Below, piece after piece: positions 37,505 to 60,537 of a stretch of DNA of 64,000 nt (position 1 is its first letter; every line of letters begins with the position of its first letter). Source of the DNA: Octopus vulgaris (Eukaryota); assembly GCA_951406725.2 (NCBI GenBank), contig OX597829.1, positions 2,418,001-2,482,000 of the forward strand. Direction: 5' to 3'. The notes beneath the pieces are model-generated. The model did not search any database. It saw only the letters and a list, made by a program, of their open reading frames with translations, and had not been told where the DNA came from. Both the position numbers and the translations under genes were made by a program.

Positions 37505-39482
37505 AAGGTGATAATATTGGAGGCTGATGGCATGTCTGCTCCCAAATACACATCTGCAACCCTGTCCCTCAACTCTTTAACATTCAGATTATTCCATCAA
37601 ATATGATACCTTTTTCTTTACATTGTTTTGAACTGATCATGCCTGATCTTGTAGCATTAAGATTTTGATGATGTGATCATTTATTTTTTAGAATGACATT
37701 GTAGGGTAGGTGTGAGAAGCCAGATCTGGCTGGTTTGAACATAAAACAGGTAGAAAAAATTGGGCGCTGAATATGGCTGGTTTAACCCTTTAGCACTTAA
37801 TCGGGCCATATCCTGCCTAAATATTCTGCTTGCTTTATGTTCAAACCGGGTAGATTTGGTGTCTGGCATCTACCCCACAACGTCAATTTGAACATCAACA
37901 ATCACATCGGGGAGATTTCAAGGCTACTGGACAATGCAGGATAAATTCAAAACAATGTGAATAAATAAGCATTACATTTGATTGAGTGATTTGAATGCTT
38001 AAGGGTCAGGCACCACTCATTTCCGTACCACCCATGTGGCCCCTGTAATACTGGATCTACCCTTATTCAGCCTATACTAACACCATCTTTTAACACTCTA
38101 CCCTGGCCTGTGACAATGCCCATGTGTAAGGGGTCACATAGGGCATGTCTGTAATCAATACATACAATCCTAACACTCCTGTGACCTGTCATTATTATTT
38201 ACTTGTCCCCAGAGACCCTGTTCTTGCCATCTGTCACTCTTACTATGATACTAACACCCTGCCGTTGCCTGTCATTCGCACCTCAAACTCACCTTACACC
38301 AGTTATGCTTTTCTGCAATTATATTCATGATTGATTGACCCCACCCCTAAGAGAGTAGTAATGCCAAATAAGAACTAACACAGAATGTGTCAACCCATCC
38401 CACCCATGTCAGCACAGAGGTGTTTATAAAATCCTTTCTACTAAAGGTACAAGGCCTGAAATTTTGTGGGAGGGGACTAGTTAATTACCTTGATCCCTAG
38501 TATGTAACTGGTATTTATTGACCCCACAAGAGTGAAATTCCATGGAATTTGAAACCAGAACATAAAATTAGACAAATTGTCATTTTGCTTGGCTCATATA
38601 ACGATGATAATAATGATGCTGTGTGTGTACATGTGTATCTGTGTTATCATTTTGCTCATTAAATTTTCAGAGCATTCCTTCCACTTTTAATTAATTATCA
38701 CTTCAGTAAAGACAACTATTCATAAAACATGCTGGGCAAAGTTCAGAGAGCTTCTAACTCTGTTGGAAACTAAGGGCCTCTCCTTCAGAGTGAAAAACAG
38801 ACGAGGCCTGTTGATAGGCCAAGTTACTGAAGTGTTTGTGCAGAGATAACATCTCTTATAGATGTGCTGTTTTAAAACAATAAACAACAGAGTGAGATGA
38901 AAATTGTTGTTGGCACGCTGGGCCAAATCCTTATCTATGATACATACTCGGCTATTTTAATATAACGCTGCCTCATTTGCATTTACTGGATTTTCTTTCA
39001 CCCAGACTGCCATTTACAACACCTGTGGGGTGTTTTATTTACTGTTTCCGTGGCTGGTTGTGAGTACACAACATTGAAAAGTCCCATGGAAACCTTTAAT
39101 GAAATTTGCAAATCTCACAGGCTGCTGCTGCTGTTAGAATAATTTTTGCCTTCCCCCTTCATTTATTGTGTTTTTAATGCAGCAAGTCCATAAGAAATGT
39201 TATGTCAGGATGAGTAACACTGTAACTAGCCTATAAACAGTGTATATACATTAAGGATAAATAACACTGTAACTAGCCTATAAACAGTGTATATGCAGAT
39301 GTGTGTGTGTTGTATACATCAGTGCTTCTCAAACTATCTGATGTGGCATACCGGTAGTTTTTTTTCCACTGTGCCAGGGACCGGTAATATTTCTTAGTAA
39401 TATTAATTTATACAGCAAACAATATATATAATGAATATAATAAAAGTTGACAAGTTTATCTTTTCTATCTTATATTTATTCT

Positions 39483-39713
39483 TATTTCTTAACTACCCAC
39501 AAGGGGCTTACCACAAAAGGGACAAACAAGGACAGACAAACAGATAAAGTCGATTATATCGACCCCAGTGTGTAACTGGTACTTATTTAATCGACCCCGA
39601 AAGGATGAAAGGCAAAGTTGACCTCGGCAGAATTTGAACTCAGAACGTAGAGGCAGACAAAATACTGCTAAGCATTTCACCCGGCATGCTAACGTTTCTG
39701 CCAGCTCGCCGCC
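39483..39713 (-). mobile_element. Full-length SINE B monomer, 3' half of the U6 chimera
   Basis: Head ggcggcgagctggcagaaacgttagcatgccggg through tail ...gtgggtagttaagaaata. Confidence 0.85.
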
Positions 39714-39717
39714 TTTT

Positions 39718-39812
39718 AAAAATATGGAACACTTCTCGAATTTGTGTCATCTTTGCGCAGGGGCTATGCTAATCTTCTCTGCATCGTTCCAATTTTAGAA
39801 TATGTATCGCCG
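39718..39812 (-). pseudogene. U6: U6 snRNA retropseudogene lacking about 10 nt at the 5' end
   Basis: Minus strand reads CGGCGATACATATTCTAAAATTGGAACGATGCAGAGAAGATTAGCATAGCCCCTGCGCAAAGATGACACAAATTCGAGAAGTGTTCCATATTTTT. The ACAGAGA box is mutated to GCAGAGA. Confidence 0.92.
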
Positions 39813-40135
39813 TATCTTATATTTATTCTGTAAACAAATAACACAACATTACATAAGCATTTTATAACCATTTTCTAATGTTTCTTTCTTTTCTGGAAAC
39901 TCACAGCGTACTGGCAGCTGATGGCTCGCAGACCACCACTTTCAGTAGCACTGGTATACATCTTAAAAATTGAGAGGCTGTGTGGTAAGTAGCTTGCTTA
40001 CCAACCACATGGTTCTGGGTTCAGTCCCACTGTGTGGCACCTTGGGCAAGTGTCTTCTACTTTAGCCTCGGGCCGACCAAAGCCCTGTGAGTGAATTTGG
40101 TAGACAGAGACTGAAAGAAGCCCATCATATATATG

Positions 40136-40170
<35 letters not shown>

Positions 40171-42764
40171 TTGTGTGTCTGTCCCCCTAGCATTGCTTGA
40201 CAACCGATGCTGGCGTGTTTATGTCCCCGTAACTTAGCAGTTTGGCAAAAGTGACCGATAGAATAAGTACTAGGCTTACAAAGAATAAGTCTCAGGGCCG
40301 ATTTGCTCGACTAAAGGCGGTGCTCCAGCATGACCGCAGTCAAATGACTGAAACAAGTAAAAATAAAAGAAAAAAAAAAGAAGCTTCAAGAGACCTGAAA
40401 TAATTCATTTTCAGTTTTATAACTCAGACAAGGTAAAGCTGTGTTTTATGATACGTCATCCTGTGATACAGCAGGGCACATCATTTCATCATTGCATCTT
40501 TGAGTCATCAAGTGTTTCAGGTTTTTCAACAGATGCTCTCACCCAGAGACCCAGGTGGGGGGGGGGGGGGTTGATCGAGCCCATAGCTTGTTCCCAAGTA
40601 ATACTGCCCCTTCCAGGGCTCACCCCTCCTGAAGAATGTGAAAAGAAGTGCCACTCCCAAACAGTTGAAGGAATCCTGGGTATAGGTAGACCCAGGAAGA
40701 CATGGGATGAGGTGGTCAAGCATGACCTTCGAACGTTGGGCCTCACAGAGGCAATGACGAAAGACCGAGATCTCTGGAGACATGCTGTGACTGCAAAAAC
40801 CTGACAAATAGCGTGAGTTCATGGCTGTTTCCTGCACCAGTTTCACAGAGCAGCGCTAGCCCATCCAAAGTACCTTGAGGTAACTTCTGCTGCTGTGATC
40901 TAGCAGAATCATTACTGCATCAGACAAAATGCTCAGTGACACTTCTTCCAGATTTATGTCACTAAGGTCAACTTCACCTTTCATCCTTTTGGGAGCAATA
41001 AAATAAATATCAGTTATGTACTGGGGTTAATGTAATTGTCTCTTTGTCCCTACAGTAGAAAGAAAGGAAGAAGTAAGAATGTTCCACAGAACATAAACTA
41101 GTGACCAGTGATATCAGGATAATACCTATTTCTTTACTACCCACAAGGGGCTAAACACAGAGAGGACAAACAAGGACAGACACACGGATTAAGTCGATTA
41201 CGTCGACCCCAGTGTGTAACTGGTACTTATTTAATCGACTCCGAAAGGATGAAAGGCAAAGTCGACCCCGGCAGAATTTGAACTCAGAACGTAATGGCAA
41301 ACGAAATACCGCTAAGCATTTCGCCCGGCATGCTAACAATTCGGCCAGCTCATCGCCATAACAGTATAATACCAACACGTCCAGAAGACAATTCCGATAA
41401 GGAACTGATGGAAGCTGAATGATTCCTCAAAGAGAGGTTTAGAAAAATACTGGTTGGCACAATCGAGGGGAGAGAAGGGGAGGAAATGGAGATTTATAAA
41501 ACGGAAGATAACAGGTGCTGGGGTAGGGGTTGTGTACATGAGAAACTCTTTTACTCTTCACTCTTTTACTTGCTTCAATCATTTTGACTGCAGCCATGCT
41601 GGGGCACCACCCTTAGTCGAGCAAATCGACCCCAAGACTTATTCTTTGTAAGCCTAGTAGTTATTTTATTGGTCTCTTTTGTCGAACCACTAAGTGACGG
41701 GGACGTAAACACACCAGCATCGGTTGTCAAGCGATGTTGGGGGGGGACACACAAACACACCACACACATACACACACACACATATATATATACATATATA
41801 CGACGGGCTTCTTTCAGTTTCCATCTACCAAATCCACTCACAAGGCTTTGGTCGGCCCGAGGCTATAGTAAAAGACACTTGCCCAAGGTGCCACACAGTG
41901 GGACTGAACCCGGAACCATGTGGTTGGTAAGCAAGCTACTTACCACTGTTGATAACACTAGAAAGACTGAATCTGTAGATGGAGCAAGGTAACATATGTA
42001 AAAAAAAAGGGTAGCAAATACACACAGAGGCAAATATATATGAACATATGTATTTATACACATATATAGAGAGGTAGGCAGAGAGAGACAGACAGACACA
42101 ATATGGCCAAATGGCTAGGAAGTTTGTTTGCACTCATGAGATCTGGGTTTCTTCCAACTGCATTGCAACTTGGACATGTGCCAGTTTCTATAGCCATGAA
42201 GCAAGTTTGGGCACACACACACAGATATATACATACGGATATTTGTGTAAGTATACATGCGTATATGTACAAGTTTGTATGTTTGGTGTGTGTGTGTGTG
42301 TGTATAGGCACAGGTATGGCTGTGTGGTAATAAACTTGTTTCCCAGCCTCATGGTTCCGGGTTCAGTCCCACTGTGTGGCACTTTGGGCAAGTGTCTTCT
42401 ACTACAGCCTTAAGCTAATCAAAGCCTTGTGAGTGAATTTGGTAGACAGAAACTGAAAGAAGCCCATCGTATATATACATGAGTGTGTGTGTGTGTATCT
42501 TTGTGTCTGTGTTTGTCCCCCACCACCACCACTTTACAACCAGTGTTGGTGTGTTTACATCCCCCATAACTTGGTGATTTGGCTAAAGTGTCTGACAGAA
42601 TAAGTATTGGGGTTTATTCATTTAACTAAAAATTTACAGTGGTATCCCAGCATGGGCACAGTCTAATGACCAAAACAAGTAAAAGATACATATATATATA
42701 AATACACACACACACACATATATATGTGCATACATATACAAGTATAAACAAATATATATGTGTA

Positions 42765-56545: not shown

Positions 56546-56844
56546 GCACACACACACACATATATACACACGTGCACACACACACACACAACGCGCGCAC
56601 ACACACACACATACACACACACGCACACAGTGCACACACACACACACATATATATATACACACGCGCACACACACACACAACGTGCACACACACACACAC
56701 AACACTCACACACATACATAACCTACATATATATAATGCATGCGTGTGTATGCCACGTATGTGTGCGGTCAATGCCCGCTAGTGTGTCCTATGCGTGCAT
56801 GTGCCCGCCCGCACGATATGCTGTGAGTGTGCGCGTGTCCCTGT

Positions 56845-59119
56845 GATTACTTTCCTTATTTATTCGTGTTTGGTCTGTGGTGTTGTCCGAGCATTGGTAT
56901 AGTGGGAAGACTAAGAATTTGGGGGACTTATTGTGTGCACAAAGGTCTAAGTGTCCACTTAGTGGTATCTGTCTTGTGGAGGGGTCCCTCAGTTGTTGTC
57001 GGTGAACTGTCATTCTTTCTCTGAGGGTAAGGCTCGTTTGCCCTATGTAGTCTTCGTGGCATCCTTCACACCTTATGACGTAGAGTAAATTTTTTGATGC
57101 GCACGTGAAATTATTTTTTATGATGAATGTGTGTCCCGAGTGGAACTTGTACGACGATCCCTCAATGAGGTGGATGCAGGTCTTGCAGTTGGGGCGACCA
57201 CATTTTTTGATTGTGGGCGGTGGGTTTGTGTTGTGTAATTTTGCGTTGGTGAGGAGGTTTTTTAGGGATTTAGGTTGTCTCTTACTTTTTATTATTTTAT
57301 GAGCTGCCAGTATTTTTTTCAGGCGTGGGTCTTGATTTAGTTGTGGAATGTTGTTGTATATAATAGTGTAAGCTTCTGCATTCCTTGGGTTGTGTGTTGA
57401 GAGATAGGGGAGGCTATTTACTGTACTGTGGATGTGTTTGGGTTTTCGTAGGTCTTGAATGTTGATTGATTTGGCCCGTTCTATTCCGTTGTCTACTAGT
57501 GATGCCGGGTAATGTCTTTCGAGAAGAATTGCCCTTAGTTCCCGGAGTCTTCTATTTCGTGTTGTGTCATTTGAGACAATAGTGCAGATTCTTCTCGCTA
57601 GGTTGAAGGGGATATTTGTCTTTGTGTGTTTTGGGTGATTGGAGGTGAATAGAAGGTATTGTTTAGAGTCAGTGGGTTTGTAATGGATGTCAGTTTCAAT
57701 GTTGACGCCTTTTTTAATGATTAGGATGTCAAGAAAAGGGAGTTGGTCCTGACTATATTCCATTGTGAATTGAATGTTGTTATTTACACTGTTGATAAGG
57801 TTTTTGAAGTCTATAAGTTGGTCGAGTGTGTGGGGCCATAGGATGAGGCAATCATCTAAGTAGCGTTTCCAGTTCTCCAACAGGTATTTGTGGAAAGACT
57901 GGCCGTACTTATATTTGGATTTTTCATAGATATGTGATTCCAGGTAGGCCATCACCAGGTTTGCATAGGTAGGTGCAACTTTCGTACCCATTGCAGTTCC
58001 TGAGACCTGTCTGTAAGTGTTGTTGTGGAAATACATGAAGTTGTTTTGCAGAATAAATTTGAGGCCCTCAATTATGAATTCTTTTTTAATTCTTTCCGGG
58101 ATCTCATTGGGATATTTATCTAGCCAGAATTTAATGGCTTCCAGTCCATATTGATGTGGGATTGTGGTGTAAAGATTAATGACATCAAAAGAAACGATTA
58201 AGGTGTCTTTATCGGCATGTTTGGGGAGATGATTTAATAGGTCCAGGTCATCTCTTACAATACTTGGAATGTGTTTCAGTATTGGCTTTAAGATGATATC
58301 TATAAAGTTGCTAAGTCTGTGTGTTTCACAACTTGGGCCTGCCACTATTGGTCTCAGTTTGAGATCAGTGGGATGTGGTATAGTGATGCAGGTTGAAGTG
58401 GACTTTTTGCAAGCTTCTGTGATAATTTGACTCTTGTGTATTTTTGGAAGCCCATAGAGTGTGCTGGTTTTGCAATTAAATTTAGTAATGTAGTCGCATT
58501 CCTTTGCTGTCAAGTCATTCCGGTGTTGGTAAATGAGTGCCTTCAGATTGGTCATTGTTTTGGATTGCTGGTAGTCGACTACTCTTTCGTAGTATGTGGT
58601 ATCCTCTAAAAGGAGAGATACAGAGTTTTTATATTGCTCAGTATTCATAACAACGACCGTACTACCCTTATCAGCTTCCTTTATTGTGACGTCATGATTG
58701 TCTCGTAGCGTATGGATGATTTCCCATTCTCTTTTACTGGTGTTGGGTTTGAGTTTAGGTTGTGGGAGTTCACCATAAGGGAAGTTGGAGATGTAATCGC
58801 AAAATTTGTCTAAGGTTTTGTTTTTGCCTTTTATGGGATTATAGTTGCTTTTGTTACAGACCATTGATTCGTCGTTATTATTAGTTTTCCTGTCAAAAAA
58901 TTCCTCTGTGAGGCGTAATTTTCTGCAAAAGTGTGAGATGTCATCCTGTATTTCCCTCAGGTTAGGGTATTACGGAGTTGGGGTGAATTTTAGTCCTCTT
59001 GAAAGGATTTTTATTTGTGGTGTCGACAGGTTTAGGTTAGAAAGATTCACTATTTTTGGTTTTTCGGGGTTGGTATCTACCATCTGGTGTCGTGGAAACT
59101 GATGCCCTTGCCTAAAAAA
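56845..59119 (-). CDS. PLE ORF2: reverse transcriptase + Zn-knuckle linker + GIY-YIG endonuclease. One premature stop and a disrupted C-terminus.
   Basis: VNLSNLNLS...LSRGLKFTPTP*(TAA 58972-58970), LYGLPKIHK, LRPIVAG, SFDVINLYT, GTAMGTKVAPTYANL, YLDD, CGRPNCKTC and LLYVIRC...YIGQT. Confidence 0.93.
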
Positions 59120-60423
59120 GGAATCCTGGGGGTTCTTCTGTTTGCGGTATTTTGCTGTATGTGATTCTGTCCCCCGTTGATATGTTGTCTGTTGAAGAGG
59201 TTTTGGTTGTTGTGATTCTGTCCCCCGTTGATATGTTGTCTGTTGAAGAGGTTTTGGTTGTTCCAGGGTCTGGGTTATTGGTGTGGCCTCCTGGAAGAGT
59301 TTTGGTTATTCCAGGGTCTGGGTTGTTTGTCCTGGGTGTGATGTTGGTTCCTTAGAGTGGGTTGGAAACTATATTCATGGTTTAGAAGTGAATTCCTATA
59401 TGTTGGGGGAGAACTGTGAGTTAGGAGCGGTTTGGGTTGGAATCTACAATCATAGTTCAGAGATGGGTTTCTAAGTGAAGGGTAGGATCTCCGAATCTGG
59501 AACGGTTCTTGTGTGGGTTGGGGTCTACGTTGTCTAGTAAAGTTTTGTCTTGTGATGATGGGTGTCTCGGTTCTTTTGATGGGATTGTAGTGCTGTCTGT
59601 AAGTTCTGTTGTTGTTGTTGTTGATGTTAGGGGTGGTGTGTGTTCGGTGTTTTGTGGTTGGTTTTCTTTGTTTTTGGCGAGGGGTGTGAGTTGAAGTAGA
59701 TATTTTAAAATATGGGTTGCTTGAAAGGTGTTCCTTTGTGAACTCTGTTTCATAATTGGTGAACCAGCTGTTTTTTTCCATTCGCTGGAGGGATGTTAGT
59801 TCTTCATCCTCGCAGTTTTTTCTCCAGAGTTTGGTGGTTTCATCAAGGAGTGCTCCTTCACAGTGTTTTGAGATTTCAATCTGCATTTCATTGTCAAGGG
59901 TCTTGGATTTTTCTTCACTGGCGTTGGCTCTGAGCCGCAAGAGTTCTACTTCCGTTTTGAATTTTTCAAAAGCTAGTTTCTCCCTGAGGTTTTTTTGGTT
60001 TTCTGGTTCATTTTGGATGGGTTTTATTTGTAGTTTTCTGGGTAGGATGATAGGGGTGGAGTTGAGCCACTTTTCATAAATGTCAGCTTTGTTGTTATTT
60101 TTTATGAAATTCCAGAAGGCAAACTTACGCGCTTTGAGATTTTTACTCCAGGTGTTGTTAAGAGAGCTTTTAATTGAGAAGCAGTCTTTAGTTTGCTCCT
60201 GCTTTGGGAGCACTGCCGTCTCTATGGATTTCATTAGGTTTTGCAGTGTTGGGATGATGTCAGGGATTTGATTGGTTGTTTTGGCCTCCATGAGTCCATT
60301 TAGGTATAAGTGCGATTGTTCGACTTTGTTTATTATGGTTGAAAGTTTCGAGGAGATTTCTTGTAATTCTTTTAGGATATTTTGGTTCATTAAAGATTCT
60401 GCTTGTTGTGATTTGGGTGGCAT
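59077..60423 (-). CDS. PLE ORF1: coiled-coil-like protein with a Q/N/R/P-rich repetitive C-terminus and one internal stop at 59277-59275
   Basis: Long stop-free frame from MPPKSQQAESLM. The frame continues past the TAA to ...PRIPFLGKGISFHDTRW* (TAG 59079-59077). Contains a 51-nt tandem repeat (NNQNLFNRQHINGGQNH x2). Confidence 0.75.
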
Positions 60424-60537
60424 TTTCGGGACTCGTGTGATGTTTATATATATATAAAAAAGTTGAGTTGTGGGGTATCGCACGAGTGGGATTGTATAAG
60501 AAAAAAGGTTTGAAAATGCAATTTAAACGATGTTTAT

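Follow-up and report, generated by a model that had tools for sequence, protein, structure and literature searches.

A U6 snRNA-SINE chimera inserted as one unit in the Octopus vulgaris genome, and an estimated several hundred further U6 fusions

Introduction

Mammals, platypus and lizard carry retrocopies in which U6 snRNA is joined to SINEs or to LINEs of the L1, L2 and RTE clades (PMC4476161, in the sections cited here). The mammalian U6/L1 and U6/Alu chimeras retain an intact U6 oligo-T, are followed 3' by a sense retroelement and carry a single target-site duplication round both parts (PMC4476161; PMC13174262), all of which they share with the octopus locus described here. U6/Alu is portrayed as very rare in mammals, where U6 and U6atac may be the sole RNAs to take part in switching (PMC4476161, same sections); for human L1, chimeras with 7SL, tRNA and other RNAs number from a few to 21 loci (PMC13174262, in the parts cited). 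The octopus chimeras differ from the mammalian ones in that full-length SINEs lead among the partners, 7SL and U2 also act as acceptors, poly(A) is absent and extra bases are often present at the junction.

U6-Mon-1 and U6-L2 of platypus and U6-AnolisSINE2 and U6-RTEX of lizard resemble ours in their SINE partners, in the involvement of several LINE clades per genome, and in their 5'-truncated U6 and short LINE 3' pieces (PMC4476161). These sets comprise 40 and 16 copies, respectively, obtained under a strict identity filter, and the L2-type duplications of platypus are short (PMC4476161, as far as the cited sections go). In comparison, several hundred fusions are estimated here, in an invertebrate, and they include a SINE with a Tx1-like tail and duplications of 12-18 bp.

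Two further systems are related in part. SINEU of crocodilians also carries an snRNA-derived 5' part on a mobilisable 3' part, and template switching has been proposed as its origin (PMC4494074); Tx1 families with such snRNA-derived heads have been mentioned (PMC4758252). SINEU, however, has master copies and a shared structure, which are the criteria by which SINE families are recognised (PMC4494074; PMC7245038, in the passages cited), whereas the octopus copies appear to have been made independently. The R2 enzyme can jump from the 5' end of one RNA to the 3' end of another via untemplated additions, as we propose here, but the demonstration was made in vitro with an enzyme of a different LINE clade, and its authors doubt the weight of such jumps in vivo (PMC8857657). 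No report of an invertebrate U6 chimera appeared in the openly accessible articles that we searched for comparison (including PMC11838501 and PMC11727581, in part).

Here we describe a U6-SINE chimera in a 64,000-nucleotide stretch of O. vulgaris DNA (contig OX597829.1; hereafter the window) and the genome-wide set of fusions to which it belongs. The locus belongs to a class already described; what sets the octopus set apart is its size, the prevalence of full-length SINEs as partners and the variety of RNAs that serve as acceptors.

Results

Structure of the locus

The chimera splits a MITE that we take to be hAT-like from the length of its duplication (Table 1). Read along the minus strand, its parts run in the order duplication, U6, two A's, SINE and duplication, and the inner edges of the two duplication copies coincide exactly with the U6 5' break (39812) and the SINE 3' end (39483).

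Table 1. Coordinates of the chimera and its host element within the window.
Feature	Position	Strand	Basis or remark
Target-site duplication, copy 5' of U6, 17 bp	39813..39829	-	Two copies 100% identical; target present once in other MITEs
U6 snRNA retrocopy, nt 11 to T5, source variant V3	39718..39812	-	Rfam and variant comparison
Two extra A's between U6 T-run and SINE start	39716..39717	-	Solo-copy and junction comparison
Full-length tRNA-type SINE (SINE B), 233 nt, 8.3% from majority sequence	39483..39715	-	
A-box-like and B-box-like segments within SINE B	39693-39703 and 39630-39641	-	By eye
SINE tail, homologous to Tx1/L1-type LINE 3' end	39483..39536	-	Alignment
Target-site duplication, copy 3' of SINE, 17 bp	39466..39482	-	Direct-repeat comparison
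Host MITE, split by chimera	39320..39953	+	634 bp, terminal inverted repeats, 927 candidate copies
MITE 8-bp duplication	39312-39319 and 39954-39961		

An Rfam search returned a U6 match of 89.3 bits on the minus strand (39718-39822), whose first ten U6 positions fall inside the duplication. The copy, described as near-complete in a first-pass annotation of the same DNA, does end in its oligo-T but is 5'-truncated: it begins at nt 11 of V3, where 2 nt of microhomology are shared with the duplication. The V3 genes are clustered in tandem on C1. Relative to V3, the retrocopy has lost 2 nt and carries five substitutions in nt 21-102 plus one at nt 16; one change, A41G, falls in what we take to be the ACAGAGA box. 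No promoter was found upstream of the U6 retrocopy, and this locus is probably dead.

The U6 3' end is intact and finishes in T5 (4-8 T in the class). Directly after it comes a retroelement that points the same way and likewise retains an intact 3' end. What had been annotated as a short TAAAA-like junction before SINE B, which is indeed full length, resolves into the T5, two extra A's and the SINE's own AA-GGCGG start. We assign the AA before GGCGG to the SINE because solo copies have A at positions -2 and -1 (91% and 82%). The two extra A's are likely untemplated or the result of stutter. The A-box-like and B-box-like calls in SINE B follow what we presume to be the consensus.

Just to the right of the MITE lie a full-length SINE A (39974-40380) and an RTE-like fragment (about 40670-40800), both separate insertions. 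Elsewhere in the window, a 726-aa frame with a reverse transcriptase domain (56789-58969, minus strand) has a 415-aa frame just upstream of it (59275-60522, minus strand); the C-terminus of the 726-aa frame looks like GIY-YIG, and we take that frame to be Penelope-like.

A single insertion event

When the insert and one duplication are removed, the window MITE aligns straight through with 19 other copies, among which the site is deleted in one, several differ by a few bases and two diverge slightly beyond the site. U6 is present in none of these 19 copies and neither is the doubled target, which bears out the empty-site comparison that the first-pass annotation had suggested. The locus thus combines one duplication round both parts with an empty pre-insertion site.

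We collected 39 loci in which U6 is joined to SINE B, mostly by likeness to the window junction, for which reason they are not an unbiased set. The full 3' end is present in 34 of them; three of these were dropped since their upstream flank is itself SINE B, which left 31 for a duplication test. A duplication of 12-18 bp encloses U6 and SINE B together in 12 of the 31 loci, the window locus included, and a duplication round the SINE alone was seen in none of them (0/31). Mismatched locus pairs, used as a null, passed in 7 of 930 cases. Long duplications are lacking in 19 of the 31 chimeric loci and in 14 of 19 solo SINE B copies, the other five of which have one. They are scarce in chimeras with SINE A (1/25) and with short tails (3/32); most of these have no duplication, and their single-event origin rests on adjacency.

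SINE B does enter other SINE B and U6 copies (L060, L051, L040), so in principle a second insertion could have placed it at the T-run of a U6 copy that was already there. At the window locus, however, a single perfect duplication holds both parts, the tested loci offer no SINE-only duplication, and the MITE site is without U6 in every aligned copy. Two sequential insertions are refuted here and we give them almost no probability; U6 and SINE entered the genome at this locus in one event, as had been proposed from the direct repeat.

The SINE B copies at L040, L051 and L060 have entered one another and U6 at short targets that resemble each other, which produces head-to-tail arrays.

U6 fusions across the genome

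We searched the genome (2.8 Gb, 227 contigs) for U6 3' ends. There are 233 exact matches to the 3' 19-mer (0 for the control) and, when up to three mismatches are allowed, 827 matches to a 24-mer (1 for the control). Of the 233 exact matches, the first 100 in contig order were classified by script as SINE A (32 full-length, 2 truncated), full-length SINE B (6), a third SINE (1), short tails of about 50 nt (27), RTE-like 3' ends (5), U6-U6 (2) and others (25). Six of the 25 were reassigned by eye: a SINE A relative, an RTE-like ORF, two CR1-like ends judged from translations, a 5S and a SINE B tail tip. The clade labels RTE-like and CR1-like are ones that we presume from general knowledge. In the final tally of these 100 unselected ends, 79 are fused, with a sense partner (SINE, LINE end or 5S) immediately 3' of U6, 2 are U6-U6, 8 are gene-like and 11 are other; full-length SINEs are the largest partner class (40/100).

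This proportion, extrapolated from the youngest class, suggests about 650 chimeras among the 827 ends, and we estimate that the genome holds several hundred separate U6 fusions, a scale missed by the first-pass annotation, which had proposed such a search. Three U6 source variants contribute, V3 being that of the window copy.

Several other arrangements were seen in the same survey. Fold-back (inverted) U6 copies occur at L113, L136, L149, L119, L108 and L019, with the same 3' flank on both arms in L113 and L136; they look like DNA-level duplicates and not retrocopies. Four variants of the roughly 50-nt tail element share nearly one start point, immediately before a two-hairpin 3' end whose stems covary by eye, and they are found both in chimeras (L061, L067, L068, L083 and others) and solo (L080, L134, L149). 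Their shared start suggests a fixed stop or processing site. At L158, a SINE tail without a body was initially read as a LINE end and is a short tail inserted in an unrelated repeat.

Independent origin of the fusions

The shared layout of U6 and SINE B at no fewer than 39 loci is what a composite, SINEU-like family amplified from one or few master copies would also produce. The details of the loci point elsewhere. The 39 loci have 34 different junction strings and three U6 variants, each of which occurs with both SINE B subfamily marks, and the majority of the U6 changes that recur are C>T or G>A, mainly at CpG sites. A tree was built from 34 chimeric and 28 other SINE bodies, two of the latter belonging to U6atac and U2 chimeras. 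It requires 20 label changes against 20.7 when labels are shuffled, and its starred branches force at least three, although the tree is weak (4/59 branches starred) and its power to detect a family correspondingly low. The correlation between U6 and SINE divergence (rho 0.29, p 0.09) is weak and is not counted as support. With neither a uniform junction nor descent from master copies in evidence, the composite-family reading is largely refuted and in our view highly improbable; the U6-SINE B fusions look independent.

The mobiliser of SINE B

A low-stringency search with the SINE tail in 879 kb of DNA found LINE 3' ends, and the last 55 nt of SINE B match a Tx1/L1-type LINE. The majority 3' ends of SINE B and of the Tx1-type LINE can be aligned across 55 columns, in register up to the last position, with a score of 57; the best of 5000 shuffles scored 41.5. 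The 3' ends of RTE-, CR1- and R4-like elements, considered as alternative sources of the tail, scored 16-26.5. The Tx1-type LINE is about 6.3 kb long, young and abundant (28,066 first-look candidates), and encodes an ORF1 with a weak zinc knuckle and an ORF2 of 1152 aa with endonuclease, reverse transcriptase and zf-RVT domains. Among solved structures, ORF2 is nearest to human L1 ORF2p (E 3e-55, vs 3e-21 for R2). The label Tx1 is one that we assign on features presumed to be diagnostic.

The first-pass annotation had suggested here the mammalian phenomenon in an invertebrate, probably driven by a non-L1 LINE. The locus is indeed a U6/SINE chimera of the known vertebrate type, but the tail alignment and the affinity of ORF2 indicate that the guess of a non-L1 driver is probably wrong.

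None of 148 U6 flanks is joined to the Tx1 family that we found. That LINE sits in tetranucleotide repeats, while SINE B chimeras have unique duplications of 12-18 bp, and from these two observations the real mobiliser would be a sister family. We regard a sister Tx1-type family as the likely driver, with good though not full confidence. At L310-L317, copies of the tetranucleotide-repeat-specific LINE include many open 1152-aa ORF2 frames.

Other acceptor and donor RNAs

Fusion extends to other small RNAs. Of 25 matches to 7SL, 14 are cluster genes (three of those were viewed) and 11 are dispersed, 10 of which are fused. U6atac has 43 matches, and 13 of the 15 viewed are chimeras. For U2, a junction pattern identified five chimeric junctions, against about 79 expected for U6 with the same motif (34/100), which indicates a preference for U-ended RNAs but no strict need for them. 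The best 30 U2 loci, tried first as a control, were all gene-like and hence saturated, and the junction pattern was used instead. On the donor side, U6 is also fused to full-length 5S (L116) and to its own capped first base (L093, L084).

A few of these loci have features of their own. In L084 (1358-1570), a tRNA, U6 and a 5' piece of U6 stand in series, with no duplication by eye; a double jump is possible. L093 (375-630) has U6-U6 followed by a short CR1-like tail, and local duplication is possible since both U6 copies carry one variant base. The number of U6atac-like copies (43, L230-L244 among them) is large for a minor-spliceosome RNA. Many dispersed U2 genes (L245-L274) keep both flanks across more than 10 chromosomes, which suggests that U2 gene units are mobile at the DNA level.

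Discussion

Template jumping and ligation compared

We consider that the chimera was probably made by a LINE reverse transcriptase, itself probably of Tx1 type, which copied the SINE RNA through to the 5' terminal base before jumping to the oligo-U end of U6. The enzyme would nick the MITE, prime on the Tx1-like tail of the SINE and add a few untemplated bases on reaching the SINE 5' end. The A overhang would then pair with the terminal U's of U6, U6 would be copied until its 5' hairpin, and the product would be joined to the target via the 2-nt microhomology. Several of the LINE systems in this genome would make the same hop, each independently, with other small RNAs accepted and U-ended ones preferred.

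The R2 enzyme offers a biochemical parallel: it adds mainly untemplated A, and such overhangs are needed for its jump, although long A overhangs are unproductive and jumping in vivo is doubted (PMC8857657). Extra bases are present at 74 of the 87 octopus junctions with a T-run of at least 4. The first extra base is A in 41, C in 31 and G in 2, and the C-over-G bias may partly be terminator read-through, because V3 genes have C after the T-run; a linker C is seen with all three U6 variants.

In human U6/L1, RtcB has been shown to join the 2',3'-cyclic phosphate of U6 to a 5'-OH RNA, the fused RNA then being retrotransposed, and SINE RNA could have been joined to U6 in the same way. U6 and U6atac far outnumber the other acceptors in this genome, the T-runs are mostly 4-6 and resemble the 4-8 of human junctions, and truncated LINE partners occur, for which ligation is possible. 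For the SINE chimeras, however, ligation appears unlikely. Of the SINE-head partners, 40 of 42 begin at +1, a position at which Pol III transcripts are expected to bear a triphosphate. RtcB requires the U6 cyclic phosphate and a partner 5'-OH and joins precisely, and with a triphosphate partner it gave 0/26 full-length products (PMC6789731, in the experiments cited here). At the window locus, by comparison, the partner is not 5'-truncated but full length, two extra bases separate it from U6, and most other junctions also carry extra bases. The 5' ends of U6 and 5S act as donors, and 7SL and U2 as acceptors; neither of the latter two is, to our knowledge, known to end in a cyclic phosphate. The end chemistries of small RNAs in this animal, 3' and 5', are assumed here. 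Together, the +1 SINE partners and the 7SL, U6atac and U2 acceptors lead us to favour jumping over RtcB ligation; the first-pass annotation, which named both routes for mammals, had missed these distinguishing features. Four read runs were compared with the MITE and SINE side only; their signal comes from paralogous SINE copies and is uninformative on junction, expression and polymorphism.

Implications

Whether U6 chimeras arise by ligation or by template switching is treated as still open in the cited parts of a 2026 paper (PMC13174262). The hundreds of junctions in this genome, whose RNA ends would by inference be chemically unsuited to RtcB, bear on that question, and the young Tx1-type family with its open ORF2 provides material for testing. 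On balance, and with some reserve, we read the genome as a record of several hundred in vivo end-to-end jumps, in which at least four systems (Tx1-, RTE- and CR1-like, and the SINE A driver) capture U6, U6atac, 7SL and, more rarely, U2, sometimes serially, and which would be nearly the sole retrocopy route for such RNAs here.

The octopus fusions extend the class of U6 chimeras beyond vertebrates and show a route by which SINEs could gain new heads. If the reading as a record of in vivo jumps is true, this genome would offer the clearest genomic evidence that the chimeras found outside mammals are products of jumping and not of RtcB ligation, and the process would constitute a running source of SINE heads.
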